A DNA stretch of 64,000 nt, taken from an uncultured Christensenellaceae bacterium (GTDB lineage: Bacteria; Bacillota; Clostridia; Christensenellales; Borkfalkiaceae). The position numbers and the translations under genes are program-made. Positions 26,783 to 61,899 of the stretch are shown here, piece by piece. Positions within the stretch are counted from its first letter, which is position 1; the number at the start of each line of letters is the position of its first letter. Below the pieces are notes generated by a model. That model ran no database searches. It saw only the letters and a list, made by a program, of their open reading frames with translations, and was not told where the DNA came from. The stretch is from contig CAJUMW010000002.1 of NCBI GenBank assembly GCA_910587625.1, forward strand, positions 86,002 through 150,001, read 5' to 3'.

Positions 26783-26785
26783 AAA

Positions 26786-27590: not shown

Positions 27591-27617
27591 AAACCACGCA
27601 AAATTGCGTGGTTTTTT
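27591..27617 (+). terminator. Intrinsic terminator
   Basis: AAACCACGCA-aaat-TGCGTGGTTT followed by TTTT. Confidence 0.8.
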
Positions 27618-29198: not shown

Positions 29199-29238
29199 AA
29201 ATCAACATTAAAACAGACAAACTCTCATAGTTTATTCT

Positions 29239-31148: not shown

Positions 31149-31150
31149 CA

Positions 31151-44434: not shown

Positions 44435-44475
44435 CACAGCGGCTCGGACAACTTATCGTTGTCCGAGCCGCTGTG
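44435..44475 (+). terminator. Strong hairpin after recO (terminator candidate without a clear T-run)
   Basis: CACAGCGGCTCGGACAAC-ttatc-GTTGTCCGAGCCGCTGTG, an 18-bp perfect stem. Confidence 0.6.
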
Positions 44476-44536
44476 TAATATCGCGTAATTTTCCTATTTA
44501 AAGTGAAAATTTCGTGAAATAATTTTTTTAAAACTA

Positions 44537-44565
44537 TTGCTATTTACACTATTATATGTTATAAT
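44537..44565 (+). promoter_or_regulatory. Sigma-A-type promoter candidate for the Hsp70/GTPase operon
   Basis: TTGCTA (44537-44542), 17 nt, TGtTATAAT extended -10 (44557-44565). Confidence 0.5.
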
Positions 44566-44619
44566 CAAAAAGAATTTGTGTACAAACAGGTTGTACAAAA
44601 AAATGATAAGGAGAACAGT

Positions 44620-45636
44620 GTGGCGGAAGAAATTAAGGTTATAGGCGTTACCGTCGAAAACGTAAATTACGACGAGTTTAAGGCAACGCTCGACAGATAT
44701 TACGACAAATTTGCCAGACTTATAAAGACCTATAAGGCAAAGGACGACACTATAGCAAAGCTCAGCGACGAGGTTACGAAATACAGGGGCGGATTTGCGC
44801 TTTCTATTGTAAAACCGCTTTGCGTTTCGCTTATATCGCTTAGGGAGGATTGCCGCAAGACGCTTGCAAATATCGAAAAATATTGCAAGGACGTCGAAAG
44901 CGTAGTCAGGTATTCGGACTATCTTTTATCCGACGTGGACGAGTTTATGTCAACTTACGGTCTTATTTACGGAGAGGACGGGTTTATTTTGAACGGAAAA
45001 AAGCTTAGCGACTGCGTGTCGAGAAAAGCCGCGTCCGTTTGCGACGAAGAGCAAAATTGCGAAAGTATCGAAAGCAATAGCGAAAACGTCGACGAAGGAG
45101 AGCAGAGCGAAGCGTGCGGCAAGGAGAGTTATTCGTTCAATACGCTTCTTTCCGAAATAGATTACGGACGGGAAAGGATGGAACAGCTTTTAACGGATTG
45201 TGCAAAAGCCGACGAAAATCTCGACCGTTACGTCAAGCTTGCGGCGTCTATCGAGGAGAACTATACCGACGCTATGCTGTTGCCGCTTTACAGGGAAATA
45301 GCTAATTTTTACGAAAAGCTGAAAGACAACGTCGAAGATGTCAAACAGAGGATAAACGAGGGCAATCTCGTACAGAGTTATTCCTCCTCGGTTAGCCTTG
45401 TAATAGACGAAACCTGGAAGCTGCTTATAATGGCAGGCGTTACAGTGGAGCACGACATATCCGACAGTTACGATATGCGCACCAACAAGATAGTCAAAAT
45501 TGTAAATTGCGACGATGAAAAACTTGATAGAACGGTTGCCGTAAGGCATACCGACTGTTACCTTTTCGACGGAAAAATTTTGTATCCCTCGAAAGTAGAC
45601 GTATATAAATACGTCCCCAAAAAAGTTGAAGAATAA
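44620..45636 (+). CDS. GrpE-like nucleotide-exchange-factor homologue (divergent, extended coiled-coil region)
   Basis: The C-terminal end aligns by eye with the GrpE beta-domain (LLIMAGVTVEHDISDSYDMRTNKIVKIV..RTVAVRHTDCYLFDGKILYPSKVDVYK vs GrpE GVE.I...G..FDP..H.A.......V..V...GY.L.GR.LR.A.V.V.K). The GTG at 44620 has AAGGAGA upstream. An alternative GTG lies at 44578. Confidence 0.65.
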   Translation: MAEEIKVIGVTVENVNYDEFKATLDRYYDKFARLIKTYKAKDDTIAKLSDEVTKYRGGFALSIVKPLCVSLISLREDCRKTLANIEKYCKDVESVVRYSDYLLSDVDEFMSTYGLIYGEDGFILNGKKLSDCVSRKAASVCDEEQNCESIESNSENVDEGEQSEACGKESYSFNTLLSEIDYGRERMEQLLTDCAKADENLDRYVKLAASIEENYTDAMLLPLYREIANFYEKLKDNVEDVKQRINEGNLVQSYSSSVSLVIDETWKLLIMAGVTVEHDISDSYDMRTNKIVKIVNCDDEKLDRTVAVRHTDCYLFDGKILYPSKVDVYKYVPKKVEE

Positions 45637-45669
45637 AAAATATTAAATAAAAAAGAGGAGAAAATCACA

Positions 45670-47328
45670 ATGGGTAAAAAAGTAGGTATAGACTTAGGTA
45701 CGACGTATTCAGTCGTAAGCTATGTTGACGAAACGGGCACAATCGTCAATATCGAGAGCGAAGAGGGAGAAAAGACCACCCCTTCGGTAGTATATTTCGA
45801 CCCCGACGGGCAGACCGCAGTTGTCGGAACGAGAGCGAGAGAGGCAGGTGCTTTGAACCCCGAGTTCCTTGTAGAGCGCGTAAAACAGTTTATGGACGAC
45901 CCCGATTACCAGCTTGAAATGCACGGCACTACATACTCGGCAAGCGCGGTTTCGTCTATTATTCTTAAAAAACTTATAACCGACGCCGAAAATGCGCTCG
46001 GCGGAGAGGAGATTGACGGCGCGGTTATTACCTGCCCCGCATACTTCGGTGACGTTGCCAAGGACGCAACGAGAAAAGCCGGAGAAAACGTAATTCTTTC
46101 CAACGGCAAAAAACTCAACGTTATGCGTATAATCGACGAGCCTACCGCAGCTGCGATAGCTTACGGTAACTCGCGCAGGGAGGACATGCACAAGACAGTT
46201 CTTATTTACGACCTCGGCGGCGGTACTTTCGACTGTACCGTAATGAAGCTCGACTTCGAGGGCACTAAGAAGGAATACAGAGTAATTACCACCAACGGCA
46301 ACCACAAGCTCGGCGGTAAAAACTGGGACGATACTCTTGCCGAATACGTTATGAGCGAGTTCTGCAACGCTACGGGCTGCGATATCGAGCTTATGCGTCA
46401 GGACTTCGAGGTCAAGGCTTGGTTTTCCGAAAACGTTGAAAAGGCTAAAAAACAGCTCACAAAAATGTCCAAAACAACGCTTACGCCCAGCTTTGACGGA
46501 CAAAAATACAGGGTTGAAATCGAGCGCACTCTTTTCGACGAAATTACCGACGGTCTTTTCAACGAAACTATTACGCTTATAAATCAGATGATGGATCAGG
46601 CAAACTTAAACTTTGCAACAGATATCGACGAAATTATACTTATCGGCGGTTCCACGCGTATGCCTCAGGTTGAAGAAAAGCTTACCGCCATTTACAATAA
46701 GCCCATTATGCAGTACGACCCCGACAAGGCTGTTTCAAACGGCGCGGCGTTGGTTGCAAGCGGTATGGACGCAGGCAATTCATCTTACGACCATGCCGAC
46801 AGTTCGGTGCCCTCAACCCCCGGAAAACCTTCTAACCTCGAACCTACCGAGTTTACGGATAAAGATGGTAATGAAGGATGTATTTTCGAGGTCTGCACCA
46901 AGTCGTATTGTCTGAGATATTACAGCGGCGGACAGGAAACTTATGTCAACCTTATAAAGAAGGACACCCCCAAGCCTGCAACGGGAACAACTGCTTTCCT
47001 TTTGCCCGGGCTTGTGATAGGCGGCGGTGACGGAAGCGGAATGACAAGCGAAATAGGCTTGCTTATTATGGAAAACGATTATAACGGCGACGAAGTAAGC
47101 CGCGACCAGTGCGTTGAAATTTACGAGGAAACTCCCCTTAAATTCGATACGCCCATTCCTTCGGATACAAAGGTTTCGGTCGAACTTTACGTCGACATTT
47201 CGGGTACGCTTACCCTTATTCTCACCGAAACGGACACGGGCAGAACGCATAAGCTCTATCCCGAGCGTATCGGCGGAGGAAATATAGGCAACGGTATGGA
47301 CGCAGCTGCAAAAATTACGCTGGGTTAA
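45670..47328 (+). CDS. Hsp70-family ATPase paralogue 1 (NBD plus SBD-beta-like region, no helical lid)
   Basis: GIDLGTTYS (phosphate-1), IYDLGGGTFDCTV (phosphate-2), IILIGGSTRMPQV (adenosine). 552 aa. The C-terminal beta-rich segment ends VDISGTLTLILTETDTGR. Confidence 0.88.
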   Translation: MGKKVGIDLGTTYSVVSYVDETGTIVNIESEEGEKTTPSVVYFDPDGQTAVVGTRAREAGALNPEFLVERVKQFMDDPDYQLEMHGTTYSASAVSSIILKKLITDAENALGGEEIDGAVITCPAYFGDVAKDATRKAGENVILSNGKKLNVMRIIDEPTAAAIAYGNSRREDMHKTVLIYDLGGGTFDCTVMKLDFEGTKKEYRVITTNGNHKLGGKNWDDTLAEYVMSEFCNATGCDIELMRQDFEVKAWFSENVEKAKKQLTKMSKTTLTPSFDGQKYRVEIERTLFDEITDGLFNETITLINQMMDQANLNFATDIDEIILIGGSTRMPQVEEKLTAIYNKPIMQYDPDKAVSNGAALVASGMDAGNSSYDHADSSVPSTPGKPSNLEPTEFTDKDGNEGCIFEVCTKSYCLRYYSGGQETYVNLIKKDTPKPATGTTAFLLPGLVIGGGDGSGMTSEIGLLIMENDYNGDEVSRDQCVEIYEETPLKFDTPIPSDTKVSVELYVDISGTLTLILTETDTGRTHKLYPERIGGGNIGNGMDAAAKITLG

Positions 47329-47353
47329 TAATTTAAGGTATAAAAGTTAAAAT

Positions 47354-47384
47354 TCCGCCGACGCCCGTTTACGACGTCGGCGGA
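47354..47384 (+). other. Intercistronic GC-rich hairpin between the two Hsp70 genes
   Basis: TCCGCCGACG-cccgtttacga-CGTCGGCGGA, a 10-bp stem with no T-run after it. Confidence 0.5.
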
Positions 47385-47421
47385 TAAGCCTATTTTAAAG
47401 TTAAATATAGCGAGAGTAAAT

Positions 47422-49500
47422 ATGAAAGAAATAAACGTCGGCATAGATTTAGGAACTACATATTCCGCAGTGGCGGTGTTCGATAGCGCAAGCGGCAGCG
47501 TAAAAATACTTAAAAACCACTTGGAGGAAGAAACTACGCCCTCGGTCGTGTGCATAGAAAACGGCAACGTGCTCATCGGCGTCGAGGCAAAGGACGAGCA
47601 AGCCGCAGGCAATGTCGGTGTTGCCGCGTTCTATAAAAATATGATGGGCAACGACGATTTAAAACCCTATCTCGACGGACGGGAATACACTGCGGAGCAG
47701 CTTTCGGGAATTTTTTTAAGCAAGCTTAAAGAGTCGGTCGAGGGCGCGAACAACGTTAAAATAGGCGGCGCGGTAATAACCGTTCCCGCATACTTCAACG
47801 AGGCGCAGCGTCAGGCAACGATACGCGCGGGAGAGGCGGCCGGGCTTAAAGTGCTTAAAATTATCAACGAGCCGACGGCGGCAATTATCGCATACGGACT
47901 TACGGGCATCGGCAAACGCAACGTAATGGTCTATGATTTGGGCGGAGGCACGTTCGACGTGACTATAGCAAAAATCGACGGGGCAAACGTTCAGGTTATA
48001 GCGACCAACGGCAACCACCAGCTCGGCGGCAAGGATTGGGACAACGCACTTGTCGAAATGGTAACGTCGCAGTTCGAAAACGATTACGAAATAAGGCTTG
48101 CGGAATATCCCGAGGCATATAACGGACTTTTAGTCCAGTGCGAAAGGGCAAAAAAACAGCTTACTGCAATTCCATCGACTACAATTTCAATAACCTGTTC
48201 GGGTTATAAGGGCAGATATACCGTTACACGCGAGGAGTTTGACGCGAAAACTGCACCCTATCTCAACGAGACGCTTACGCTGTCCGAAAATTGCTTTTCG
48301 GAAATCGGCGGCGGCTTCGGCTGGCACTCGATAGACGAAGTGGTGCTTGTCGGCGGTTCCACGCGTATGCCTCAGGTATCCGAGCTGATAACAAAAGTTT
48401 TCGGCAAACCGCCCAAGATTATAGGCAACAAGGTGGATACCATTGTTGCGACGGGCGCGGCTATGCAGGCAAGTTTATGCACTTCGGGCACGATAACTTT
48501 AAACTTGCGGAGCTTCGGCGTCAAGACATCGGCAAACGGCGGCAGCGCGCCAGCAACTTTGACTTTGAGTAACGACAATATCAAGGACGTAACCTCGCAC
48601 AGCCTCGGAATGCTGGCGTTATCAAAGGACGGGGGCGATATTGTAAACAGTATAATTATAAAGAAAAACAGCCTTACTGGCGTTCCGTATGGCAGGCAAT
48701 ATAACTTCAAGGGGGAAAAACTTGAAGTCTATGTTTTGCAGGGAGAGCTTACTTCACCCTACGAATGTACTTTGCTCTACAAATACATAGTTACGGGAAT
48801 GGATAAAAACGCCAAAAACGAGTTTACCATAAACTTTCAATACAACCAGAACGGCGTAGTTGAAGTTACGGGCAATCTTAAAAACGGCGCGGCGTTAGCC
48901 GTGCAAAAGACAATTGTCGACGAGAGTATAGAGGAAATTATAGCAAGATTAAAGCGCGAGAGGGAAGAGGCTCAAAGCCGTAGGCGTTCACTCGACGTCA
49001 CGTTTGCTATCGATACTTCGGGCAGTATGGCAGGCTCGGGCATAAGGGAAGCCAAAAAATCAATTACAAAATTTATCGAAAAGCTCGATTTGAAGTACGC
49101 GCGCGTGTCGGTAATAAGCTTCGACAGCAATTACAGGTGGATTTGCAGAAACGATAAGTCGGCAGGTTCAATCAACTCGGCGGTTGAAAGACTTTCGGCG
49201 GACGGCGGCACCAGCGCAGACCCGTTTGAACTCTATCTTTCCGACGTAAATTTAAGCGTTGACGAGCAGAGGGTGATAATAGCTTTGACTGACGGGGAAT
49301 GGTTCTATCCCGACGAGGCAATAAGAAACGCGGACAATTTGAAATCGCGAGGAGTAATTATATATGCCGTCGGCGTGGACGGAGCGAATTACTCGTTCCT
49401 TGAAAAAATCGCTTCCCCCGGCGGAGCTAAAAAAATAGATTTGTCGCAGTTGACAAAGACGTTTTCGGACATTGCGTCGTCAATTGCTACCGAACAGTAA
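47422..49500 (+). CDS. Hsp70-family ATPase paralogue 2 fused to a C-terminal von Willebrand factor A (vWA) domain
   Basis: GIDLGTTYSAVAV, VYDLGGGTFDVTI, VVLVGGSTRMPQV, and an SBD-beta-like DVTSHSLGM... A short helix follows, then a vWA domain with MIDAS residues DTSGS..GGT..TDG (about 48991-49497). Confidence 0.88.
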   Translation: MKEINVGIDLGTTYSAVAVFDSASGSVKILKNHLEEETTPSVVCIENGNVLIGVEAKDEQAAGNVGVAAFYKNMMGNDDLKPYLDGREYTAEQLSGIFLSKLKESVEGANNVKIGGAVITVPAYFNEAQRQATIRAGEAAGLKVLKIINEPTAAIIAYGLTGIGKRNVMVYDLGGGTFDVTIAKIDGANVQVIATNGNHQLGGKDWDNALVEMVTSQFENDYEIRLAEYPEAYNGLLVQCERAKKQLTAIPSTTISITCSGYKGRYTVTREEFDAKTAPYLNETLTLSENCFSEIGGGFGWHSIDEVVLVGGSTRMPQVSELITKVFGKPPKIIGNKVDTIVATGAAMQASLCTSGTITLNLRSFGVKTSANGGSAPATLTLSNDNIKDVTSHSLGMLALSKDGGDIVNSIIIKKNSLTGVPYGRQYNFKGEKLEVYVLQGELTSPYECTLLYKYIVTGMDKNAKNEFTINFQYNQNGVVEVTGNLKNGAALAVQKTIVDESIEEIIARLKREREEAQSRRRSLDVTFAIDTSGSMAGSGIREAKKSITKFIEKLDLKYARVSVISFDSNYRWICRNDKSAGSINSAVERLSADGGTSADPFELYLSDVNLSVDEQRVIIALTDGEWFYPDEAIRNADNLKSRGVIIYAVGVDGANYSFLEKIASPGGAKKIDLSQLTKTFSDIASSIATEQ

Positions 49501-49538
49501 TTTTATATTAAATACAGCAGGTTAAAAAGGAGTATTTT

Positions 49539-52328
49539 ATGGCAGCGGTTAAAACGAGAACTGCAGAAGAATTAAAACAGTCTAAATATAATTATTTTAT
49601 CGTCCTCGATTTGAGCGTCAACGAAAAGAATCCTACTACAATACTGCAGGCACTTAAAAAGAAGTTTCCGGCCAATCAGGGTACGCCCAAAGACCCTTAC
49701 TTAGCTCGGCTTTTGGAGTTAAAGGGGGATATGGAGCAGGTACTTGTAAACGACGCAAGATATGACGACGCTTCCGGACAGTACGTTGCAAAGAGCGGAA
49801 TAAGAAAGGAAGAGGGAGATAGGGCTAAAAACTTTAAGCTTTCCGAAGTTATGACTATTGTTAGGGTCAAGTGCCAATCAAACGGCATAATGTACAAGAC
49901 CGAGCTTAGAAAGCTGTGCGTAGACGCAAACAAGAAAGCCGTGTTCTTCGAATTTGCCGAGCTTGAAAAAAAGTTTAAAGACGAAAAGCTCGATTCGGTC
50001 GTAAAATACATAGACAACGAAACCAACATCATAAATTTTATAGCGTTCGACGATATTTCCGATTTGTTGCAGGTTGAAGGCTTTGCCGACTTATACGCAT
50101 ATCTAGGACTGACAAACTCGGCAAGCTCGCAGCAGATTTTGTCGGAAGAAAAGAGAATTACAAACGAAAAGCTTGCAAACACGGGCGACAAGGAAAAAAA
50201 GAACCGCATAAACGCCTTTTCTGGCAACATTCAGACGATATTCAAGACGCCGGCATCGAGAAAGCAGTACGACGACTATCTGAAATCGCGTGAAAGCGTT
50301 TGGTCGCAGTTCAAAATTAGAAAGGCGTACAGCAAGGAAATTTCGCTGAACGAGTATATAGATTTCGTCGAAAAGCTTATGAAGGCTTTGAATATCCGCT
50401 TGGACGACGCGCAAACTATGCTCGGCGCAGGTTTAAAAAACTACGGCTTTATAGTCACGGGCGGCACAGCTAACGGAGCCGAAAAGAGCAAAATGGGTAT
50501 TACCGACCTGTCCTCTTGCCGTTTCTGCGGTTCGCTGTATAAAAAGGGCGCAAAAAGTTGCCCCAACTGCGGAAAATTGCTTGTTTCGGCGTGCTGGAAC
50601 TGCGGCGCTTCAATGGATTTGACAGTCACAAGCGTCTGCGGCAAGTGCGGAGCGAGCGAGGCGTTAAAAAAGAGCTTTGCGGCGGAAGTTATAAATTTGA
50701 ACAAGCTTTTTCAGTCGGGACAGTACAAGGAGTATGCGTTAAAGAGCGAGGCGTTCAAGCGCACTTATTCAAGCTTTAACCAGCCGCGTTCGCAGGTGGA
50801 AAGGGAGATGGCGGCAATAACCAAGACCTCCGACGACATTGTTTCGAAACAGCGCGAAAAGGAAACTACTTCAAAAAACTATCTTGCTAAAATAAACGCG
50901 GCAATAACTTCGAGAAAGTATTTCGAGGCGCAAAATCTTTTAAGGCAGTTAAAGCAGGTCGTTCCCGACGCAAACGTTAAGGCGGAAGAGAGCAGAATAA
51001 ACGCCGTCATTGCCGAGGTTCAGCAAATTTACAGGCAGATATGCGCGCTCGGCTCTGACGAGGCAAGAATTATACCCGAGTATATGCGTCTTTACGAAAA
51101 GTGCGTTGACTATTCCGAGGCGCAGTCGGTTATAAAAAAATTCCCGCCCAAACCTCCCGTCGAAGTTACCGTATCCGTGAGCGAAAGGGGCAATATAATA
51201 AAGTGGAACGTTCGTCCCGACGACACTATCACATACTCGGTAGTCAGAAAAATAGGCGCGGCGCCGAGAAGCGCAAGCGACGGAGATTTGCTTGTTTCGG
51301 GTCTGCGCGCGTTTACGTTTACCGACCTTAAAGCCGAAAACGTAGTACCTTATTTTTACGGCGTTTTTGCAACAAGGCTGGGTAGCGATTCTGCACTAAC
51401 CTGCACCAAAGCTTCTTGCCAAAGGTACGCAAACGTCACTATAAAGAGCAGTAAAGTGCTTGTTAACGGGCTCAAAGTAGAGTTTGCCTCTCTTTCGGGC
51501 GTAAGTAAAGTCATAGTTGTGCGCTCAAACGACGCTACGCCGCCCAAGAGCATTTCAAGCGGTACCAAAATTCCCGTAGACGAAAACGGGTTCACCGATT
51601 CTACTTTGCCCGGTTCGGGATTATACGGCTATTTCATTGTCTGTGAGTACATTGTAAACGGCAAACCCGTGTACTCGTCGGGAATATCCGAAACTTTCGA
51701 GTTCTACGAAAGACCGTCGTTTGTGGAAAACGTCAGGTTCAAAAAGGAAGAGGGCAACCTTTTTTGCGTAACTTTCAACGAGCTGGCTGTGGGTAAATTT
51801 GATATTTACGCTTCAAAGACGGCTGTCGTCGGCTTGAAATCCAACGAGTATTACAATATTTCAAAGCTAAACGGGCTTACGGATATCGAGTGTAAAAACG
51901 TAAAGCCCACTTCGGTAAACTTCGAGCTGCCGGGCAGGGGAGATTGGTTCTTCTACCCCGTGTGCGTGCAAAAGAGCGAGTTTACGGTGGGAGACGAGTA
52001 TATCTACCGCGATACCTCCCCCAAGTCGGCGGTGGTGCAGTATGAAGTTAAAGTAAATAAAAACAGCACTGTTTCCATCGATTTTGCCTGCGACCACCTT
52101 GTGGAGCTTGACGCTGTGAGGGTTGTGGGGACTGTCGGCAGACGGCCGAGAAACGTAAACGACGGAGAATGCGTGTCCGTGCTTGACGGAATAAAATTCA
52201 AAAAACCGCTGTTCTCCAAGGAGTACAAGGCAAGCATAAAAGTGTCCGTAGAGGGACGTAATCGCGGCAACGTTTACGCAGTATTTGCCGAAAACGACCA
52301 AGGAATAATATTTAAGAGGAAAGGATAA
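49539..52328 (+). CDS. 929-aa multidomain protein: J-like domain lacking HPD, double zinc ribbon, helical region, C-terminal beta-sandwich-like repeats
   Basis: The J-like stretch DLYAYLGLTNSASSQQI..KLANTGDKEKK..TPASRKQYDDYL (about 50088-50282) has ANT where HPD is expected. Four CxxC pairs (CRFC..CPNC..CWNC..CGKC) lie at 50517-50648. The beta-rich C-terminal half is Fn3/Ig-like by pattern only. Confidence 0.7.
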   Translation: MAAVKTRTAEELKQSKYNYFIVLDLSVNEKNPTTILQALKKKFPANQGTPKDPYLARLLELKGDMEQVLVNDARYDDASGQYVAKSGIRKEEGDRAKNFKLSEVMTIVRVKCQSNGIMYKTELRKLCVDANKKAVFFEFAELEKKFKDEKLDSVVKYIDNETNIINFIAFDDISDLLQVEGFADLYAYLGLTNSASSQQILSEEKRITNEKLANTGDKEKKNRINAFSGNIQTIFKTPASRKQYDDYLKSRESVWSQFKIRKAYSKEISLNEYIDFVEKLMKALNIRLDDAQTMLGAGLKNYGFIVTGGTANGAEKSKMGITDLSSCRFCGSLYKKGAKSCPNCGKLLVSACWNCGASMDLTVTSVCGKCGASEALKKSFAAEVINLNKLFQSGQYKEYALKSEAFKRTYSSFNQPRSQVEREMAAITKTSDDIVSKQREKETTSKNYLAKINAAITSRKYFEAQNLLRQLKQVVPDANVKAEESRINAVIAEVQQIYRQICALGSDEARIIPEYMRLYEKCVDYSEAQSVIKKFPPKPPVEVTVSVSERGNIIKWNVRPDDTITYSVVRKIGAAPRSASDGDLLVSGLRAFTFTDLKAENVVPYFYGVFATRLGSDSALTCTKASCQRYANVTIKSSKVLVNGLKVEFASLSGVSKVIVVRSNDATPPKSISSGTKIPVDENGFTDSTLPGSGLYGYFIVCEYIVNGKPVYSSGISETFEFYERPSFVENVRFKKEEGNLFCVTFNELAVGKFDIYASKTAVVGLKSNEYYNISKLNGLTDIECKNVKPTSVNFELPGRGDWFFYPVCVQKSEFTVGDEYIYRDTSPKSAVVQYEVKVNKNSTVSIDFACDHLVELDAVRVVGTVGRRPRNVNDGECVSVLDGIKFKKPLFSKEYKASIKVSVEGRNRGNVYAVFAENDQGIIFKRKG

Positions 52329-52329
52329 A

Positions 52330-53448
52330 ATGTCGGGAAAAATTATTTGCCCCTATTGCTATACCGAACAAAAACTTAAACTTATGAAAAAAATTTGCAT
52401 AAGCGACGGTTGCGAGGAAAACACAAAAAACACAAAGTTTTCCGCAAAGGAGAGCAACTGCCCCAAATGCGGCAGCAACCTGCGCTATGCCTGCACTAAT
52501 CCCAAGTGCGGACACTCTATTGAAAAGGACGAGTTGGAGTGCAAAGACCCCCTGCCCATAGCTATTATCGGGGCAAGGTATTCGGGCAAATCCAACTATA
52601 TAGCCGTTGCCGTGCACGAGTTGCAGGTTAAGGGCAACAGATTCGGAATAGGTATCAGAGCCAACGCCGCGACGGCTTCCGTGTATTCACAGGAATACGA
52701 AGCGCCGGTTTTCAAGCGTCAGGTTCCAATTACCACCACGCGCGCCGCAACAAAGAAAAATAAGCGCGAGCCGCTTATATTTATGCTTACCACGGGACTG
52801 AATAAGGGTAAGCGCGGAACATTTCCGCTGTCATTCTATGATACCGCAGGGGAAAATATGGAAAAGAGCGACCTCGATACCGAGGAGTACGTCGGATATA
52901 TCTCCTATGCAAAGGGGCTTATCATACTTATGGACCCGTGGCAGATACCTTACGTCAAAGACAGGCTCGGCGGCATAATTCCGCCCGAGGCAAAGAACGC
53001 CATAGGTTTAAGTCCCTACGAAATTTTGGAGCGAGCTATTCGCGTCATACGCAGTCAGACCAAAATGAAGGTCAATGACAAAATCAAAATACCCATTGCA
53101 ATTGCGTTCAGTAAAATAGACTCGCTTGAAAGCGGCGGACTTTTGGAGGACGGCAGTTGCCTTACGCGCCCGTCGTCGCACATAGACGAGGGCAAGTATT
53201 CAAAGCTCGAACACGACGACACCAACAGCGACATAATGAGTATGCTTCAATACTTCGACGAGGAAGAGGCGGAAAGGTTTTTGAACCTTACTCGCAACAA
53301 TTTCGAGACATATTCGTTTTTCGGGTTTTCGTCGTTCGGCTGCGGACTTACGGGCGGCAAGCTCAGTCAAAAGGTCAAACCGAGAAGGGTGCTCGACCCG
53401 TTCCTTTGGCTGCTTAGCATAAACAAACGTATTCAGACTACAAAATAA
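52330..53448 (+). CDS. Zinc-ribbon plus small-GTPase-like P-loop protein (soluble paralogue)
   Basis: It starts 1 nt after the upstream stop. CPYC..C..C..CPKCG..CTNPKCGH. Walker A/G1 GARYSGKS (52570-52593), G3-like FYDTAGE, G4-like FSKID. C-terminal LDPFLWLL motif. Confidence 0.75.
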   Translation: MSGKIICPYCYTEQKLKLMKKICISDGCEENTKNTKFSAKESNCPKCGSNLRYACTNPKCGHSIEKDELECKDPLPIAIIGARYSGKSNYIAVAVHELQVKGNRFGIGIRANAATASVYSQEYEAPVFKRQVPITTTRAATKKNKREPLIFMLTTGLNKGKRGTFPLSFYDTAGENMEKSDLDTEEYVGYISYAKGLIILMDPWQIPYVKDRLGGIIPPEAKNAIGLSPYEILERAIRVIRSQTKMKVNDKIKIPIAIAFSKIDSLESGGLLEDGSCLTRPSSHIDEGKYSKLEHDDTNSDIMSMLQYFDEEEAERFLNLTRNNFETYSFFGFSSFGCGLTGGKLSQKVKPRRVLDPFLWLLSINKRIQTTK

Positions 53449-53462
53449 GGGGAATTGAAAAA

Positions 53463-56183: not shown

Positions 56184-56340
56184 TCCTGCTTCTATAATTG
56201 CTGTTCCGATTTTGGTGATAAGTGCGTGTATTGCACTATTATGCAACCGTAAATTTTTTGCCGCAGGCTTTATTTTCGGGCTTATTATATATTGCCTGTG
56301 TCGCTTGAAAAAATTCGCGGTATTATCTCTTACGGCGTGA
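56152..56340 (+). CDS. Doubtful small two-TM ORF in the only long intergenic gap of the operon
   Basis: 62 codons with a TTG start, no SD and no in-frame ATG. Two hydrophobic stretches (IIAVPILVISACIALL, AAGFIFGLIIYCLC). It overlaps the upstream gene by 32 nt. Confidence 0.2.
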   Translation: MRLRRKNIKIDPASIIAVPILVISACIALLCNRKFFAAGFIFGLIIYCLCRLKKFAVLSLTA

Positions 56341-56367
56341 GAAAATATTGGAAAAATTGAGGTAACT

Positions 56368-57315
56368 ATGGGTTATTTAATTGGTTTTGGTATCATACTC
56401 GGTATAATAGCCGGTATTTGTTACGGAATATACACGTTATGCGTAATTATCTGGAATATGCAGGTATGCTATCACGGCAGTATGGACGCTATGTTCAGTG
56501 TCACGCTGATTATTGTCGTTTTGTTGGCTGCTTTGGTTGTAGTTTGTTTAATTGTTGCGGCATTGTTTGAATTGGACGGATTGAAAACCGTTGTATTGCG
56601 CATTATGTTGCCCGCAGCGATAGGCTTTTTGGCTCTTTCGGGCATAGTTTATATTTACGGCTATTGCGAACCTGTATTTTTGGGTGTTGACGCATTAAGT
56701 GACCCTGCGTATAACAATTATTTTTTGAATACAGAACGGGATATAATGGTCAATGATTTGAGTCCGTTTACTACAATTCAGGCTTGGGTCATATTGATAA
56801 GCGGAACTTTGCTTTTCATTGCCGCAGCATTTTCGATTATAGCGGCGCTGATATCGTCCGTCCGTTACGGAGATATATATCTCGGCAGTGCATTCAGTGT
56901 GTTGTTTAAATGCTTATACCGCATATTTTTACCTGTTTTAATTCTTGTTGCGGTGCTCGTAGGCTGGTACTATTTAACCACTATCGTTCTTTGGGACTAT
57001 GATTTATTCGATTTGATTATTCACGGCATAGCAACCTCGGGCGCGCTGCTCGGAGCGGTAGTCGGGTTTGCTTTTCTTGTAAACAGACAGCCGCTTGCCG
57101 CCGCCTTTTCACTCGGGCTTGCCGCGGCTGTGGCATTTGTAAGCTACACCGTGTTCGGCGCAAAGATACTGCTTGATTTGATGAGCGAGTATTATCTGTT
57201 TATAATTTTAGGTTTCATAGGGTTATACTTATTGCTCGGCGTTGTTTACTGTCTTACAAGAATTAAAGTAATAAGAAATATCATAAGACGTGCAAAATAT
57301 ATGTATTGGTTATAA
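56368..57315 (+). CDS. Polytopic membrane protein (about 8 TM), function unknown
   Basis: 315 aa, almost entirely hydrophobic helices. SD TGAGGT upstream. Confidence 0.75.
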   Translation: MGYLIGFGIILGIIAGICYGIYTLCVIIWNMQVCYHGSMDAMFSVTLIIVVLLAALVVVCLIVAALFELDGLKTVVLRIMLPAAIGFLALSGIVYIYGYCEPVFLGVDALSDPAYNNYFLNTERDIMVNDLSPFTTIQAWVILISGTLLFIAAAFSIIAALISSVRYGDIYLGSAFSVLFKCLYRIFLPVLILVAVLVGWYYLTTIVLWDYDLFDLIIHGIATSGALLGAVVGFAFLVNRQPLAAAFSLGLAAAVAFVSYTVFGAKILLDLMSEYYLFIILGFIGLYLLLGVVYCLTRIKVIRNIIRRAKYMYWL

Positions 57316-57330
57316 TTATTCGGAGAAAAT

Positions 57331-58731
57331 ATGAAAAAACAAAGATTGGAAGAACCTGCAAGGACTAAACTGTTTTGGATTCCCATTTACAACATTCTTT
57401 TTTATACCGTCAAAGAAATTCTTTTGGACGTATGGGATTTGGCGTCGACTGTCGGCAATAAATTTTTCCGCCTGCTCTGGGTGGTAGTGTTTCCCTTTCT
57501 TCTGGTAATTTATCCGGCTACCTGTCTTGTACTGCTGCTGGTAATTATAGTTTTACTTTTTGTTACGCTGGTTAACTATATTTTCGGCGGCGTCAGCTAT
57601 GTGGTGGACAGCTTGTATTTAAAAATTCACGGAATAGGGCTTGTGTGTCCCGCGTGCAACAACAAGTATCAGTTGCCGACATACATATGTCCAAGATGTA
57701 ACGCCCAACATAAGAACCTGCGCCCCGGCAGGTACGGCATTGCAAAGCGCACCTGTAAGTGCGGCGCAAAGCTGCCCACAACGTTCTTTAACGGCAGGCA
57801 GCATCTTGACGCCATATGCCCTAACCCGGCTTGCCGCTATGCTTTCAAATCGAAGATACTGCCGGCACGCCCCATATGTATTCCCATTATCGGCGGCGTA
57901 TCCTCGGGTAAAACAAGCCTTATAAACGCAGGTATAGACGGGCTGAATAAATATTGCCAAATCCCCGACAATAAAATGGAGTTCGAGTATTGCTCGAACG
58001 AGGACGAGCAGAGGCACAAGAGAAACCTTGAAATTTTAAAGACGAGGAACACCGACAAGACTCATAAACAGCAGTTCGACTCGTACAAGTTCTATTTCTC
58101 TCCTCAGGGCGCAAAGGTAAAGAACAGGGTTTACGTCTATGACGTTGCCGGAGAGGTCTACGACGCCAAAAAGCAGAATATTGTTGAAAAGACGCAGGTT
58201 TTCGACTTTACAAACAGCTTGCTGTTCGTATTGGACCCTCTGTCTATCGACGATTTTTACGACGACTGCGTTCAGGCAAAGGTGCCCAATCTCGAAAGAT
58301 ACAAGCGTTCGGACAGAAGTATGAACGACGTTGTTACAAATATGATAAACAGCCTCGGCGTGTTTGCAAGTCTTACGCCCGAAAGGTGTAAAAAGGTGTT
58401 TGTAGCGATAGTTATTACAAAGGGCGACTTGCCGCTAATTAAAGACCAAATCGGTGACGAGTACGTCGCAGAGCTTGCAAGGCAGAACAGAACGACATGG
58501 AATAGGGCTAAAAATATTGCCTGCGAGCAGTTCCTTGACAAGTATCAGGCTATGAACTTTCTCAACATAATAAGGAATAAGTTTGAAAATTATCAGTTTT
58601 TCACAACCAGCTCGTGGAGCGGAGAACAGAACAAGTACGTTGCGGAAAATGCCGAGGACCCGTTCCTTTGGCTGATTGATATGGAAAGTCCCGAAATTGA
58701 CCTTAAAACAAAGTGGAACAGCAATAAATAG
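57331..58731 (+). CDS. Membrane-anchored zinc-ribbon plus small-GTPase-like P-loop protein (paralogue of 52330-53448)
   Basis: Two N-terminal TM helices. CPACN..CPRCN..CKCG..CPNPAC. G1 GGVSSGKT (57892-57915), G3-like VYDVAGE, G4-like ITKGD. C-terminal EDPFLWLI motif shared with the soluble paralogue. Confidence 0.75.
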   Translation: MKKQRLEEPARTKLFWIPIYNILFYTVKEILLDVWDLASTVGNKFFRLLWVVVFPFLLVIYPATCLVLLLVIIVLLFVTLVNYIFGGVSYVVDSLYLKIHGIGLVCPACNNKYQLPTYICPRCNAQHKNLRPGRYGIAKRTCKCGAKLPTTFFNGRQHLDAICPNPACRYAFKSKILPARPICIPIIGGVSSGKTSLINAGIDGLNKYCQIPDNKMEFEYCSNEDEQRHKRNLEILKTRNTDKTHKQQFDSYKFYFSPQGAKVKNRVYVYDVAGEVYDAKKQNIVEKTQVFDFTNSLLFVLDPLSIDDFYDDCVQAKVPNLERYKRSDRSMNDVVTNMINSLGVFASLTPERCKKVFVAIVITKGDLPLIKDQIGDEYVAELARQNRTTWNRAKNIACEQFLDKYQAMNFLNIIRNKFENYQFFTTSSWSGEQNKYVAENAEDPFLWLIDMESPEIDLKTKWNSNK

Positions 58732-58744
58732 GAGGTCGCTTAAA

Positions 58745-59335
58745 ATGGGTTCGACTTATTCGGCGGTGTGCCCGGGGTGCGGCGGCAGCCCAAAACCCGG
58801 TACAAACATATGCGAGTTTTGCGGAAAAGAGCTGTTTATAACTACTTTCAATCCGCTTTTCAATATGAATTTTCCCGACGTAAACAAGTATATGAGGTCT
58901 TATTCCTCGGGCGGATTCGGAGAAACCGACGAGCAAAAGGCAAAGCGGCTTATGGCGCTTGGGCTATGTCAATTAAAATTAAAACTCTACGATAAGGCGG
59001 CGCAGAGCTTCGAAGAGGTAGTAAATATCGCGTACGACTGTGCTGAGGCATATTACTGTGCGGCGTTGTGCGTGTTCAAGGGCAACAGACCCTTTCTTTC
59101 AAACATTAAAAGCGTCGAAAGGGCGGAACAGCTTTTAAGTGCCGCACTGTCCGTAAGCAGAAAGGGAATATATTATCTGTTTGCCGCTTTTATAAAAAAG
59201 GACTTTTACGAGCGTAAGTTTTATAAGACGAGCCCGAGCAGCAGGGACTATAAGGCCGAAGCAGATAAATTGGGCGTGCCGCAGGGAGATAAAACTTCGC
59301 TCGAGCAGCTTTTAAACACAAGAATAGATATTTAA
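58745..59335 (+). CDS. Zinc-ribbon protein with TPR-like helical repeats
   Basis: The ATG at 58745 is preceded by AGGAGG. CPGCG..CEFCG lies at 58769-58822. Helical hairpins follow: ALGLCQLKLKLYDKAAQSFEEVV..AEAYYCAALCVFKG. Confidence 0.65.
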   Translation: MGSTYSAVCPGCGGSPKPGTNICEFCGKELFITTFNPLFNMNFPDVNKYMRSYSSGGFGETDEQKAKRLMALGLCQLKLKLYDKAAQSFEEVVNIAYDCAEAYYCAALCVFKGNRPFLSNIKSVERAEQLLSAALSVSRKGIYYLFAAFIKKDFYERKFYKTSPSSRDYKAEADKLGVPQGDKTSLEQLLNTRIDI

Positions 59336-59345
59336 GGAGTAGAAT

Positions 59346-60377
59346 ATGACGCTTTATTCGGTTATAAAAAACCAAAGTCCGTTGCCCTGCCTTTTATGGA
59401 AACACCCGGGTGAGGACTTCAATAACAACTCGCAGCTTACCGTATCCGAGTCGGAGGTGGCGCTGTTTTATAAAGAGGGAGTAATAGTTCAGGAGTACAC
59501 GGGCGGCAGGTATACGCTCAACACCAATAACGTTCCCTTTATAAGGCGCATAATTTCGAAGTTTTCAGGCGGTGTTTCGGCGTTCAACTGCGCAGTATAT
59601 TTTATAAGCAAGACGCATGCAATGGACGTGAAGTGGGGAACTCAATCTCCCATTCCCATGCGCGACGCACAGTACGGGTTTGCCGTCGGCGTGCGCGCGA
59701 GGGGGTCTTATACCGTTCAGGTAAAGGACGCAAAGAAATTTCTTTTAAAGATGCTCGGCACAAATATGACGACGTATTCGGTGGAGGAGTTAAACAGTTG
59801 TTTCAGAACGGCGTTCCAGCAAAAGATAAAGGTCGAAGTTGCGACCGTTATGAAAAACCTTAAAATGACTATTCTCGATATGGCTACGGAATACGAGAAT
59901 ATCGCAAACAAACTTCACCCCGTTATAAACGGCTTGTTGGATGAATACGGGCTTCGCTGTGTAAACTTTTATGTTTCGGATATTTCCATACCGCAGGACG
60001 ACCCCAACTATCAAAAGATAAACGAGGCGTATGCGCGCGTCGGTTCGAGAAATATCGAGGGAATAACCTGGCAGCAGGACACACAGGCAAACATCTTGCG
60101 CGATATGGCTAACAATCAGGGCTTCGGAGGAATGGGCGCAGGTATGGGTATGGGCTTTGCCGCCGGAAATATTTTCGGCAGTATGGCTAACGGCGCTTTC
60201 TCGCAGCAGGCTCCTCAACAGCAGGGCGCAAAGTGCCCGTCGTGCGGAACGGATAATGCAAAGTCGGCAAAATTCTGTTCCAACTGCGGCAAACCGCTTG
60301 CGGCTGTCTGCCCCAATTGCGGCGCTTCTTTGACGTCGGGCGTAAAATTCTGCTCGAACTGCGGATTTAAAGTGTAG
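59346..60377 (+). CDS. SPFH/band-7-like protein with Gly/Met-rich linker and C-terminal double zinc ribbon (B. subtilis YdjI / COG4260-like)
   Basis: N-terminus LLWKHP.EDF...SQL.V.ESE.A.F.K.G. followed by a beta/alpha SPFH-like core. Linker GFGGMGAGMGMGFAAGNIFG. CPSCG..CSNCG..CPNCG..CSNCG at 60234-60362. Confidence 0.78.
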   Translation: MTLYSVIKNQSPLPCLLWKHPGEDFNNNSQLTVSESEVALFYKEGVIVQEYTGGRYTLNTNNVPFIRRIISKFSGGVSAFNCAVYFISKTHAMDVKWGTQSPIPMRDAQYGFAVGVRARGSYTVQVKDAKKFLLKMLGTNMTTYSVEELNSCFRTAFQQKIKVEVATVMKNLKMTILDMATEYENIANKLHPVINGLLDEYGLRCVNFYVSDISIPQDDPNYQKINEAYARVGSRNIEGITWQQDTQANILRDMANNQGFGGMGAGMGMGFAAGNIFGSMANGAFSQQAPQQQGAKCPSCGTDNAKSAKFCSNCGKPLAAVCPNCGASLTSGVKFCSNCGFKV

Positions 60378-60387
60378 AGGTGTACAT

Positions 60388-61068
60388 ATGAAACTGCTTC
60401 CCAAAATAATTATATACGTCTTGTTTTTAGTTGCGTATTCTCTGCTTGTATTTCTTCTCAACGCCGATTATACCGTCGTGTTCGGTCTGGCATACGCGTT
60501 TGCGGCGCTTGCCGTGCTGGTGCAATTTACCTGCACGATACTCGTCGATAAAAAGATTAAGGCTGAATTTTTGACCTATCATCTGGTCTTTGTATTGCTG
60601 TCGTACACGGTTATCAACCTTATTGCAAATACCCTTTGCGCGTTTTTCCACAGGGAGATTACCTATCTTGTACCGTTGCTTGTAAACGTGTGCCTGCTTG
60701 CAGGTTATACAATTTACTTTATAATTCATTTCAACAGCGTTAAAGCCATTGAAAGCAACGTCAAAGAGGAGCGCGCTCGCTTGCAGTTTGTAAGGGTTGC
60801 GGCGCAAAAGCTCGAACTGATAATGAGTTCCCTTACGGATATTTCCGTTAGCAAAAAAGTGGAAATACTTTACGACGCAGTGAGGGGCAGTCAGGCGCTC
60901 GGCAACGAGGGCGTTGCCGCCCTCGAGCTTGAAATTTTGTCCGACATAGATATGCTGCAAATTTTATATGACGACGATAATTTCGAGGGTGCGGACAGAC
61001 TTTCGCAGAGCATTTTGACAAAATTAAACAGGCGCAACGCATATATAACTTCTTCACAGGTGGTGTAA
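60388..61068 (+). CDS. 4-TM membrane protein with cytoplasmic helical tail, function unknown
   Basis: 226 aa. SD GAGGTG. Four hydrophobic helices, then a helical segment of about 100 aa. Confidence 0.7.
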   Translation: MKLLPKIIIYVLFLVAYSLLVFLLNADYTVVFGLAYAFAALAVLVQFTCTILVDKKIKAEFLTYHLVFVLLSYTVINLIANTLCAFFHREITYLVPLLVNVCLLAGYTIYFIIHFNSVKAIESNVKEERARLQFVRVAAQKLELIMSSLTDISVSKKVEILYDAVRGSQALGNEGVAALELEILSDIDMLQILYDDDNFEGADRLSQSILTKLNRRNAYITSSQVV

Positions 61069-61851
61069 ATGAGGCTTTTAAAAATACTTACCGCGTTGTT
61101 TGTGCCCTTTCCCGATATTACGGGGCAAGAGTTTAAAAGCATGTTCAATTTCAAAATGTGGGGCAAAGCCAATTTGCATAGGTTGTCCGTTTACGAACAG
61201 AACAGACTGTTTTTTACCTCGGGCGCGTCTAAAATCAACTACGTTGCAATGCTTGTTTGGCTGCTTATCGGCGTCGCGCTGGTAACTTCGGGCTTAATTT
61301 TTGCAATAGTTTTGGGCGTTTTGCTTGTCGTATCGGTTCTGAGCCTGCTTGTTATGAGGATAATGTCGATACCTAAAATTACAAGGTTGGATGTGGAAAA
61401 TAATATTCAAATAATAGTCGGCGGAATCGAGCAGGAGGGGTTGAATGCAAACGGAATAGATGCGTCTCAGGTGAATATAGCAGGCGATCCGCTCTGCCTT
61501 ATGCAGTACATAGACGAGGATATTGCAGACCGTCACTACGTCAAGGACAAAATGAGCTCGAACATTTCGGTCACATATTTCTACGTCGGTATAGACCAAT
61601 TTTTTATATATAAAGTGAGGTGTTCGCTCATCTGCGAGTTTGAAAAAGTCTGTGAGTCGTACGATTATTTTTACAGAGATATTATGAGCTCGAATATAAG
61701 AACGGACGCTTCCCGTCCGAATTGCTATATGCTCGAACTTGTGTTTTTAAACAGCCGAACGGTAAGTTTTGAGTTCAGCGGCGGACCCGAAGTGCAGCAG
61801 ACTTTGTTTGCAATCAAAAATTTAATAAGAGATAAGAGAAATACCATATAA
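61069..61851 (+). CDS. Membrane-anchored protein (2 TM plus a C-terminal soluble domain), function unknown
   Basis: The ATG directly abuts the upstream stop (TAAATG). Hydrophobic hairpin MLVWLLIGVALVTSGLIFAIVLGVLLVVSVLSLLVM. Confidence 0.65.
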   Translation: MRLLKILTALFVPFPDITGQEFKSMFNFKMWGKANLHRLSVYEQNRLFFTSGASKINYVAMLVWLLIGVALVTSGLIFAIVLGVLLVVSVLSLLVMRIMSIPKITRLDVENNIQIIVGGIEQEGLNANGIDASQVNIAGDPLCLMQYIDEDIADRHYVKDKMSSNISVTYFYVGIDQFFIYKVRCSLICEFEKVCESYDYFYRDIMSSNIRTDASRPNCYMLELVFLNSRTVSFEFSGGPEVQQTLFAIKNLIRDKRNTI

Positions 61852-61852
61852 T

Positions 61853-61889
61853 AAAACTGCCGCAAAGCTTTAAACTTTGCGGCAGTTTT
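61853..61889. terminator. Bidirectional intrinsic terminator closing the Hsp70/GTPase operon
   Basis: AAAACTGCCGCAAAG-ctttaaa-CTTTGCGGCAGTTTT followed by ATT. Confidence 0.8.
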
Positions 61890-61899
61890 ATTATATAAA

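Follow-up and report, generated by a model that had tools for sequence, protein, structure and literature searches.

This study concerns a group of twelve genes, called g1 to g12 below, in a 64,000-nucleotide (nt) stretch of DNA from an uncultured Christensenellaceae bacterium (assembly GCA_910587625.1, contig CAJUMW010000002.1, positions 86,002 to 150,001), referred to here as the window. Calling of open reading frames (ORFs) placed all twelve on the plus strand between positions 44620 and 61851, separated, in order from g1 to g12, by gaps of 33, 93, 38, 1, 14, 184, 15, 13, 10, 10 and 0 nt. The same-strand operon with two abutting junctions, which had been proposed in an earlier, model-generated first-pass annotation, is thus borne out by the ORF coordinates. 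As judged from its protein families and gene order, the locus is very probably a member of the double-GTPase (DO-GTPase) systems of the GAP1-N2 type, within their Hsp70/GrpE theme. The genes, with the assignments obtained from Pfam and, for transmembrane (TM) segments, from a hydropathy script, are as follows.

44620-45636, plus strand: g1, divergent GrpE-like protein of 338 amino acids (aa), weak match to Pfam GrpE
45670-47328, plus strand: g2, Hsp70 nucleotide-binding domain only, followed by a C-terminal region of about 190 aa without assigned domain
47422-49500, plus strand: g3, Hsp70 nucleotide-binding and beta substrate-binding domains, with a vWA domain in place of the lid
49539-52328, plus strand: g4, candidate adaptor or sensor of 929 aa, with several domains described below
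52330-53448, plus strand: g5, soluble DO-GTPase with two N-terminal zinc ribbons, PF19993 (DO-GTPase2)
53463-56183, plus strand: g6, GAP1 (GTPase-associated protein 1) of the N2 type, 906 aa, PF20013 (GAP1-N2)
56368-57315, plus strand: g7, polytopic membrane protein with about 8 TM segments, no known family
57331-58731, plus strand: g8, membrane-anchored DO-GTPase with two N-terminal TM helices and then two zinc ribbons, PF19993 (35.4 bits)
58745-59335, plus strand: g9, zinc ribbon with a short TPR-like region, first gene of a species-specific tail
59346-60377, plus strand: g10, soluble SPFH (Band_7_1) protein with two C-terminal zinc ribbons (PF13421, E=1.1e-41; Zn_Ribbon_1 twice), no TM segment
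60388-61068, plus strand: g11, 4 TM segments and a cytoplasmic helical tail of about 110 aa, no family
61069-61851, plus strand: g12, 2-TM hairpin and a C-terminal globular domain of about 155 aa, no family

Most of what the first-pass annotation had said about the proteins was confirmed. Pfam recognised Hsp70 in g2 and g3, vWA in g3, a double zinc ribbon in g4, SPFH with ribbons in g10 and GTPases in g5 and g8, together with weak GrpE and TPR matches in g1 and g9, and the numbers of TM segments given for g7, g8, g11 and g12 were reproduced by the hydropathy script.

The assignment to the class is carried above all by the two GTPases and the protein encoded between them. The match of g5 to PF19993 is borderline (27.3 bits, cut-off 27); its two zinc ribbons are formed by four Cys pairs within residues 7-60, and it bears the motifs GxxxxGKS, DTAGE and SKxD, whose G/K/S, D..GE and K.D residues are invariant in 28 of 28 relatives. 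In g8, one hydrophobic stretch of about 47 residues, at about 47-92, was read as two helices, and no TM segment was found at the C-terminus. The ribbons that follow it (CPAC/CPRC and C-x-C/CPNPAC) have Cys residues invariant across the whole g8 alignment; the relative in locus L012 (related loci are numbered with an L) carries extra hydrophobic insertions at its N-terminus. The second GTPase has DVAGE, and its P-loop, DxxGE and K.D are invariant, with the Glu present in 36 of 36 relatives. Both GTPases conserve GxxxxGK[ST] and [NST]KxD. The gene for GAP1, g6, begins 14 nt past g5, and the same GTPase-GAP1 adjacency was found in L002, L005, L007, L009, L010 and L012. Residues 4-146 of g6 match PF20013 with 51 bits (cut-off 24). 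The agreement with the published type is less complete further along the protein, where GAP1-M gives only a weak match of 18.5 bits, under its cut-off of 24, and no Pfam model for GAP1-C matched.

The DO-GTPase and GAP1 families of Pfam stem from the work of Kaur, Burroughs, Iyer and Aravind (eLife 2020, PMC7159879), in which the class is presented as a computational prediction covering 904 organisms (Table 1 of that paper), and in which its role against invaders such as viruses is likewise predicted. As set out in its main text, such systems have one or two paralogous TRAFAC GTPases with a Walker-B Glu, which often bear one or two zinc ribbons at the N-terminus and in some cases TM segments, and a GAP1 gene downstream, to which the N2 type adds a protein with fast-evolving fibronectin type III (FNIII) repeats. 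About 14% of the N2 neighbourhoods, mostly from Actinobacteria and Firmicutes, are described there as having Hsp70 and GrpE as well; some of these have a second Hsp70 without peptide-binding domain, and the FNIII protein carries a fused DnaJ domain or TPR repeats (PMC7159879). Following that description, the locus shares with the Hsp70/GrpE theme two paralogous zinc-ribbon GTPases with DxxGE, one of them membrane-anchored, an N2-head GAP1 directly downstream of a GTPase gene, an FNIII-repeat protein that carries a J-type domain (g4), and an Hsp70 (g3) with a GrpE-like protein (g1) and a second Hsp70 without substrate-binding domain (g2). Variable, membrane-rich components and presence in Firmicutes are common to both.

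The tie to GTPase-centred, NTP-dependent conflict operons, which the first-pass annotation had suggested, is therefore well founded, given DO-GTPase2 in g5 and g8, GAP1-N2 in g6 and the Hsp70/GrpE theme. Its description of the system as an uncharacterised one, on the other hand, has to be given up insofar as the class has been described, with Pfam models, since 2020 (PMC7159879). A full-text search on the family names gave only that founding paper and one passing mention in a survey of phage-shock-protein (PSP) systems, which indicates that the class is known and yet only predicted; a further search on Hsp70-based anti-phage systems gave nothing experimental on it. The locus, which bears a species-specific SPFH/zinc-ribbon tail, is thus an instance of a known open question and does not represent a new kind of system. 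The main text of the founding paper makes no mention of a vWA-Hsp70 fusion in the Hsp70 theme, of the loss of the HPD motif described below, or of such a tail.

The chaperone-type genes are well preserved in their ATPase parts. Residues 5-364 of g2 align with positions 2-373 of the 599 positions of the Pfam HSP70 profile (E=2.8e-82), and its ATPase motifs are invariant in 14 of 14 relatives. In g3, HSP70 covers residues 6-530 (E=1.4e-97) and VWA residues 525-668 (E=5.6e-19), the vWA domain having a complete metal ion-dependent adhesion site (MIDAS) whose DxSxS, T and D residues are invariant in 6 of 6 relatives. The phosphate-1, phosphate-2 and adenosine motifs are conserved in both Hsp70s, with their core residues in every relative collected. 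This Hsp70-vWA fusion is widespread, occurring in at least 120 protein clusters at 51-63% identity over the full length, from metagenome-assembled genomes (MAGs) of Clostridia and from Anaeroplasma. Since all motifs checked are conserved, the Hsp70s, the GTPases and the MIDAS site look active. For g1, residues 174-330 align with positions 14-165 of the 165 of Pfam GrpE at 23.3 bits (cut-off 25.8), and the profile of its family, compared with PDB, reached GrpE (4ani) at E=0.16 only. Orthologues occupy the same position in L010, L011, L012 and about 15 further loci, and g1 is a putative nucleotide-exchange factor for both Hsp70s.

The protein g4 is a composite one, in which an N-terminal region is followed by a J-like domain (about 183-247), a double zinc ribbon (327-371; Pfam DZR), a helical region and beta-sandwich repeats of FNIII type (about 545-929). 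A profile of 15 family members matched J-domains in PDB at about 183-247 (DNAJA3, 6iws, E=5.9e-5; DNAJB12, Sis1 and E. coli DnaJ) and FNIII domains at two places (gp130, E=2e-4; 3mpc); Pfam fn3 matches 6 of the 15 relatives. The AlphaFold2 model of g4, built from 3 sequences, is poor (predicted local distance difference test, pLDDT, 51.6), and its top Foldseek matches, FNIII domains at E=0.015-0.1, were used only to back the profile result. The earlier label "J-like" holds for the fold, as matched by the profile, but the HPD motif is absent in 15 of 15 relatives, the loop reading K/T-[SGA]-D or G-E/D-K. This loss across all relatives aligned appears to be a new detail of the class. Compared with the canonical DnaK-DnaJ-GrpE set, the locus likewise has intact ATPase motifs in both Hsp70s, with a J-fold domain and a GrpE-like protein encoded alongside, whereas it differs in the missing HPD, in the sub-cut-off GrpE match, in a g2 without substrate-binding domain and in a g3 whose lid is replaced by vWA. 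It differs also in regulation: no CIRCE-like inverted repeat was found within the window with up to 3 mismatches allowed (<=3), which places the Hsp70 set outside classical heat-shock control.

Folding of g6 with AlphaFold2 from 80 sequences gave a confident model (mean pLDDT 92.8), in which an alpha/beta head (1-125) is followed by a second alpha/beta domain in the middle (about 165-260) and then by about 640 residues of alpha-solenoid (about 270-906). This predicted architecture, an alpha/beta head on a long alpha-solenoid, is to be counted as a new detail; the fold of the GAP1 head is not discussed in the text of Kaur et al. (PMC7159879). The elements of the head follow the longin-like order beta-beta-alpha-(alpha)-beta-beta-beta-alpha. 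In a Foldseek search with the whole model solenoid proteins dominate (Ski3, Ctr9, PRPF6, karyopherins), and one complex of a GTPase regulator was noticed, FLCN-FNIP2-Rag-Ragulator (6nzd_H, E=7.9e-3), the sole match noticed outside the helical-repeat and solenoid types. A match of the GAP1 profile to PDB entry 23wm, "PP507", at E=8e-11 was rejected as compositional, PP507 having the look of a low-complexity protein of helical repeats, like the designed repeat proteins further down the list.

It is conceivable, albeit unlikely, that the DO-GTPase/GAP1 pair is a bacterial counterpart of the eukaryotic small-GTPase regulators of longin/DENN type. This idea, which rests on the order of secondary-structure elements and on the one weak match to 6nzd_H, we treat as a lead and not as a result. 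The locus would then encode a self-contained machine, gated by GTP and powered by Hsp70, in which the HPD-less J-like/FNIII adaptor would hand a sensed target to the private Hsp70-vWA motor, and this motor would reorganise the membrane proteins. If true, this would make it the first device of its kind, immune or membrane-remodelling, to be driven by a chaperone.

Related loci were annotated with hidden Markov models of our own, each gene being assigned to its best query, as g4 and g10 share a double zinc ribbon and g2 and g3 are both Hsp70s. The order of the core is kept in about 25 metagenomic or genomic loci at unrelated chromosomal sites, which include positions after secA/prfB/tsaD, after argS/yebC, after pyr genes and after era/recO. 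The sequence g1-g2-(g3)-g4-g5-g6-g8 was found in L010, L011, L012, L005, L020, L061 and about 18 loci with a single Hsp70. Co-localisation of homologues had been named earlier as a check on the proposal of one system; the order of the core is conserved in many loci, so the proposal stands, and g1 to g8 are, on this comparison of gene order, best taken as one unit and not a chance cluster. Two main architectures were seen, the two-Hsp70 form of the window and a commoner form with a single Hsp70, g1-g2 (558 aa)-g4 (981)-g5-g6 (861)-g8 (465), along with a few loci, L042-44, that have no Hsp70 within 10 kb. Three of the Hsp70-vWA fusion proteins were looked up, those of L010, L011 and L012, and each lies in the gene order of the window, with genes for a GrpE-like protein and an Hsp70 nucleotide-binding domain before the fusion, and genes for a zinc-ribbon protein of about 1030 aa, for DO-GTPase2 and for GAP1-N2 behind it. 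After GAP1 come a small TM ORF and a second DO-GTPase in L010 and L012, while the locus in L011 stops inside GAP1.

Divergence from these three loci is very uneven along the operon. Identity to the window is highest for the Hsp70s (56-66%) and falls in steps through g1 (34-41%) and the GTPases (35-39%) to g4 (32-34%) and GAP1 (23-26%). Close relatives of GAP1 and g4 were rare in a word-based search (4 and 3 matches, respectively). A HMMER profile search with GAP1 reached 250 clusters, most aligning over no more than the first 300 residues or so and just 5 below 1e-30. In the nearest genome, an uncultured Christensenella sp. MAG of a mouse gut catalogue, GAP1 is 96% identical. When metagenomes were scanned with the g8 alignment, 56 loci were obtained; the samples were from human gut, from fermentation or Ga/JGI-numbered.

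Several relatives have unusual surroundings. In L011, a homologue of coupling proteins of TraG/VirD4 type and three unannotated genes (15338-19382) are inserted between the g4 homologue and the first GTPase, the system being typical in other respects. A full-length GAP1 relative in L004 (10001-12802) has no adjacent DO-GTPase and stands beside aromatic amino-acid biosynthesis genes; another full-length GAP1 relative without adjacent DO-GTPase, in L008 (1-12796), follows a 931-aa vWA protein and two family-less proteins of 549 and 1898 aa. Downstream of the Hsp70-less GTPase/GAP1 locus of L042-L044 (14770-19161) a 1463-aa protein with a Ser/Thr-kinase-like region is encoded.

What follows the second GTPase varies between loci. 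Polytopic membrane proteins and TM-hairpin proteins of 58-89 aa are found there, as well as a transglutaminase-like protein in L005, L014 and L016/L020 and a TM protein with a discoidin-like domain in L041; polytopic or hairpin membrane proteins come after g8 in most of the loci inspected. The membrane protein encoded before g8, g7, is represented by two or three paralogues in L002 and L007, which are the closest relatives, and is missing from L010 and L012. The g9-g12 tail was seen only in loci of the same species. Its first protein, g9, shows weak Pfam TPR matches and a weak SycD/LcrH-like match, and has one four-Cys zinc ribbon (motifs CPGC and CEFC) and no TM segment. In a natural strain of this species, L071 (Logan SRR32020716, 6334-7040), two deletions have taken out the whole of g10, most of g9 and of g12 and the 3' part of g11, with g6-g8 left intact. 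Since the core was kept when g9-g12 were lost, the SPFH module is an add-on. The SPFH protein and its three neighbours, which the first-pass annotation had made part of the machine, are accordingly better described as a species-specific, deletable tail.

Kinship of g11 with the 4-TM proteins that follow g8 in single-Hsp70 loci gave no signal with HMMER or hhalign, and was dismissed. On the far side of the DUF1538 gene, L071 has prophage-like genes (HTH, ERF, HNH, SSB) in place of the usual neighbours. In L017 (11430-18217) the GTPases are followed by seven paralogous membrane proteins of 4-7 TM segments, without Pfam family, an array that looks like a local expansion of the presumed output component.

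Four non-coding or uncertain features accompany the genes.

44537-44565, plus strand: promoter-like site, TTGCTA-17-TATAAT with a TG-n extension before the -10 element, in the recO-g1 spacer (consensus match only)
47354-47384, plus strand: GC-rich stem-loop, a strong hairpin in the g2-g3 spacer
56212-56340, plus strand: candidate small ORF of 42 codons for a two-helix membrane hairpin, in the 184-nt g6-g7 gap (uncertain, unannotated)
61853-61889, both strands: intrinsic bidirectional terminator, a strong hairpin with A/T runs on either side, shared with the convergent P-II gene

The promoter-like element reported earlier is present, and is the sole one with a TG extension among the eight 10/12 matches of the region. 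Since the scan of the region gave 40 matches compared with 25.6 +/- 6.1 in shuffled sequence, this site by itself is weak, merely suggestive evidence. The most likely start of g1 is the GTG at 44620, preceded by an AAGGAG Shine-Dalgarno sequence; the start chosen by the ORF program, 44578, is disfavoured because it lies only 13 nt past the -10 element. The strong bidirectional terminator noted before was found again, and is the only strong one for the whole operon. Position between era and recO upstream and a convergent P-II/DUF1538 unit downstream is likewise supported by Pfam.

For the stem-loop between g2 and g3, a leaky internal terminator and a processing site may both be considered. In four relatives the corresponding spacer also holds hairpins, of unrelated sequence (L011, 9913-10000; L012, 9941-10000; L020, about 360-480; L061, about 1040-1150), with T-runs after two of them, and because of this recurrence the pattern suggests a leaky terminator that gives g1 and g2 a higher dose than the remaining genes. 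The recurring hairpin is a new detail over the published description of the class. The 42-codon ORF has no clear Shine-Dalgarno site. At its position L005, L010 and L012 encode TM hairpins of 58-61 aa, L001 and L013 differ from the window in this region by an in-frame 3-nt insertion or deletion, and in L003 the region is deleted.

Domain identities, intact catalytic motifs, a conserved gene order and a variable tail are what is observed at the locus; the protein contacts, the direction of signalling, the trigger and the phenotype in what follows belong to an inferred working model. Membrane-anchored g8 and its soluble paralogue g5 would form a GTP-dependent switch at the inner face of the membrane, which would dock on the alpha/beta head of GAP1. 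The long, fast-evolving solenoid of GAP1 could be a scaffold or a surface for recognition; binding of the target or a partner may fall to the FNIII repeats of g4. These two fast-evolving surfaces are the best candidates for target recognition. The HPD-less J-like domain of g4 would tether both private Hsp70s. By means of its vWA MIDAS site, g3 might grip a peptide of the partner, and its ATP cycle, which the GrpE-like g1 would reset, would drive the complex to assemble or disassemble. Output would pass through the variable tail, here the SPFH scaffold g10, the zinc-ribbon/TPR adaptor g9 and the membrane proteins g7, g11 and g12, which might alter the organisation or permeability of the membrane. 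The likeliest single role of such a device, at roughly even odds, is a thresholded response at the membrane to an invader such as a phage. To the explanation as a whole we assign a probability of about 0.55.

Support for a conflict role from the genomic context is mixed. Signals of the kind expected from conflict systems may be seen in the varied insertion sites, the steep gradient of divergence, the swapped tails, the paralogue expansions, the natural tail deletion and the restriction-modification (R-M) neighbour of L049. The last of these came from a defence-island test, in which 84 flank proteins of 19 loci were scanned together and then the ten largest singly. A known defence system adjoins only 1 of the 19 loci, L049 (14684-20956), where type I R-M genes, with PDC-S56 embedded among them, are found about 3 kb away. 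This is the sole clear defence neighbour. The other strong flank matches that were traced are generic FtsH-type AAA+ or kinase domains, whereas the remaining ones, PDC-S01 and mad3, were not traced to any locus.

A considerable number of findings weigh against an anti-invader machine of this kind. In 18 of 19 loci the flanks are housekeeping or unremarkable. No enzymatic toxin is present among the 12 proteins, and scans with Pfam and other libraries matched no nuclease, protease, kinase or integrase family in any of them, just as had been stated from the motifs. The 12 proteins gave no real match to PADLOC-DB v2 (2023), only two marginal generic ones with E of 1e-3 to 3e-3, and the PADLOC check suggested earlier thus matched no defence-system model; the tails of relatives matched neither PADLOC nor PHROGs, and the two PHROGs matches obtained fall only on the zinc-ribbon region of g10. 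No copy of g8 was found on plasmids, phages or IMG/VR contigs. The GC content of the operon, 0.42-0.49, is host-like (0.38-0.52 elsewhere in the window), in agreement with the earlier remark on composition. An exact-sequence look-up of the neighbouring P-II protein revealed the system in all 20 contigs of this species that were read, L071 among them, which fits a fixed useful cell function as well as defence. With respect to mechanism, the GrpE assignment of g1 lies below the Pfam cut-off and stays at "GrpE-like, weak", and a J-like domain without HPD makes classical stimulation of the Hsp70 ATPase doubtful. Compared with the published two-GTPase form, as described in the main text, in which one GTPase has four N-terminal TM segments and one C-terminal TM segment (PMC7159879), g8 has two at the N-terminus and none at the C-terminus; this difference is a matter of detail and leaves the core definition of the class unaffected. 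Finally, the literature searched holds no experimental work on DO-GTPase/GAP1 systems.

Some of the same findings would be accommodated by a machine for envelope stress or membrane maintenance, similar to Psp/YdjGHI, in which the GTPase switch and the private Hsp70s recruit the SPFH scaffold and membrane proteins to damaged or remodelling membrane. We give it real weight, although on balance it is on the unlikely side. The protein g10 resembles B. subtilis YdjI in its architecture, a Band-7 domain with a zinc ribbon at the C-terminus, and DO-GTPases occur in some psp operons, with a predicted role in membrane stress (PMC11237479). Mostly housekeeping flanks, presence in all 20 contigs and the lack of a toxin-like effector among the 12 proteins would also be natural for such a machine. 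Against it, no PspA/ESCRT-III, PspC, LiaI/F or TPM (YdjH-like) family was matched by Pfam or NCBIfam in the 12 proteins, and it is unusual for a maintenance system that GAP1 and g4 diverge so very fast and that tails are exchanged between loci. The SPFH tail, moreover, is confined to this species and deleted in one strain, L071, and for this reason it cannot define the function of the conserved core. A cell-biological assembly system, cytoskeleton-like or devoted to quality control of membrane proteins, in which the Hsp70 pair would fold, insert or polymerise its own membrane clients and the GTPases would act as placement switches, for instance in division or sporulation, seems decidedly unlikely. 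The main text of the founding paper describes sister themes of the class that carry tubulins (PMC7159879), the Hsp70-vWA fusion is widespread and well conserved (at least 120 clusters at 51-63% identity), and the adjacent membrane proteins could be the clients; but chromosomal position and partner genes differ between genomes, a natural variant of the same species lacks the tail, and no division or sporulation genes were seen in any flank.

One may also ask whether the twelve genes form one system at all, or whether chaperone, GTPase and SPFH/membrane operons came to lie head to tail by chance. The internal hairpin between g2 and g3, the 184-nt gap before g7 and the behaviour of g9-g12 as a separable block could be read in this way. 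However, the chaperones, g4, both GTPases and GAP1 occur together in the same order in about 25 independent loci, most gaps are very short, and there is one strong terminator only. The conserved gene order largely refutes a chance cluster for g1-g8, and we regard this explanation as very improbable.

The likeness of the tail to the PspA-YdjGHI (SamGHI) system of B. subtilis deserves a closer comparison. Membrane partners recruit YdjI (SamI), a soluble SPFH protein, on which PspA in turn depends for reaching the membrane (PMC8581546; PMC11237479). Shared with it are a soluble SPFH/Band-7 protein with C-terminal zinc ribbon(s), here g10, the likeness being one of architecture as described; the placing of the SPFH gene alongside genes for a zinc-ribbon protein and for membrane proteins; and an internal hairpin or terminator that separates an abundant first product from the later genes of the operon. 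In contrast to that system, the 12 proteins include no family of PspA type by Pfam or NCBIfam and no YdjH with a TPM domain, g9 has one ribbon and no TM segment where YdjG has two zinc ribbons and a TM segment, and the module is here a species-specific appendix to a GTPase/Hsp70 core.

A more general parallel may be drawn with the MoxR-vWA ternary systems, in the form in which the main text of PMC7159879 presents them, and with the type III CoCoNuT systems (PMC11090510), all of them predicted conflict systems too. The locus appears to share with them the logic of a switch run by an NTPase, a peptide-binding vWA domain and effectors that vary. An Hsp70-like unit, helical repeats and a GTPase are likewise found together in CoCoNuT systems (PMC11090510). 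The locus differs from both in having no MoxR AAA+, McrB/McrC or HEPN protein, and whereas the Hsp70-like domains of CoCoNuT have degenerate ATPase motifs (PMC11090510), those found here are intact.

The class is one of few predicted conflict systems with an Hsp70, J-like and GrpE-like set of its own, and the locus together with its relatives makes a compact, well-delimited test case from Clostridia of the human and mouse gut. The conserved core has 8 genes, the active-looking motifs lend themselves to mutation, and there are a natural tailless variant and a shorter form with a single Hsp70, which should be simpler to clone. Should the system prove defensive, the ATPase cycle of a chaperone would be an immune effector or a threshold device; should it serve membrane maintenance, biology of SPFH/Psp type would be linked to a new GTPase switch. 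Either outcome would give a function to the Pfam families DO-GTPase2, GAP1-N2 and GAP1-M, which are currently without one.

The rest of the window is ordinary chromosome, with genes for a permease, adenine deaminase, SecA, IleRS and FeoB. Two of these appear to be split into overlapping ORFs, SecA into 16744-18414 and 18359-19870 and FeoB into 29397-31148 and 30695-31975, the Pfam scan having covered the first ORF of each pair; a frameshift or an assembly error could explain the splits. Just before FeoB, in the part of the window with the lowest GC content (26000-30000, 0.38-0.40), an HTH_3 regulator (26786-27577) and two small ORFs are encoded. Three large ORFs are without Pfam match at E<=1e-5, namely 4313-6307 (plus strand, 664 aa), 6493-8901 (plus strand, 802 aa) and 33867-35420 (minus strand, 517 aa), the first two in a region where GC content is lower (0.42-0.44). 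A lysine riboswitch (Rfam RF00168, 69.6 bits) was found at 4003-4181 on the minus strand, upstream of the minus-strand ORF 2857-4071.

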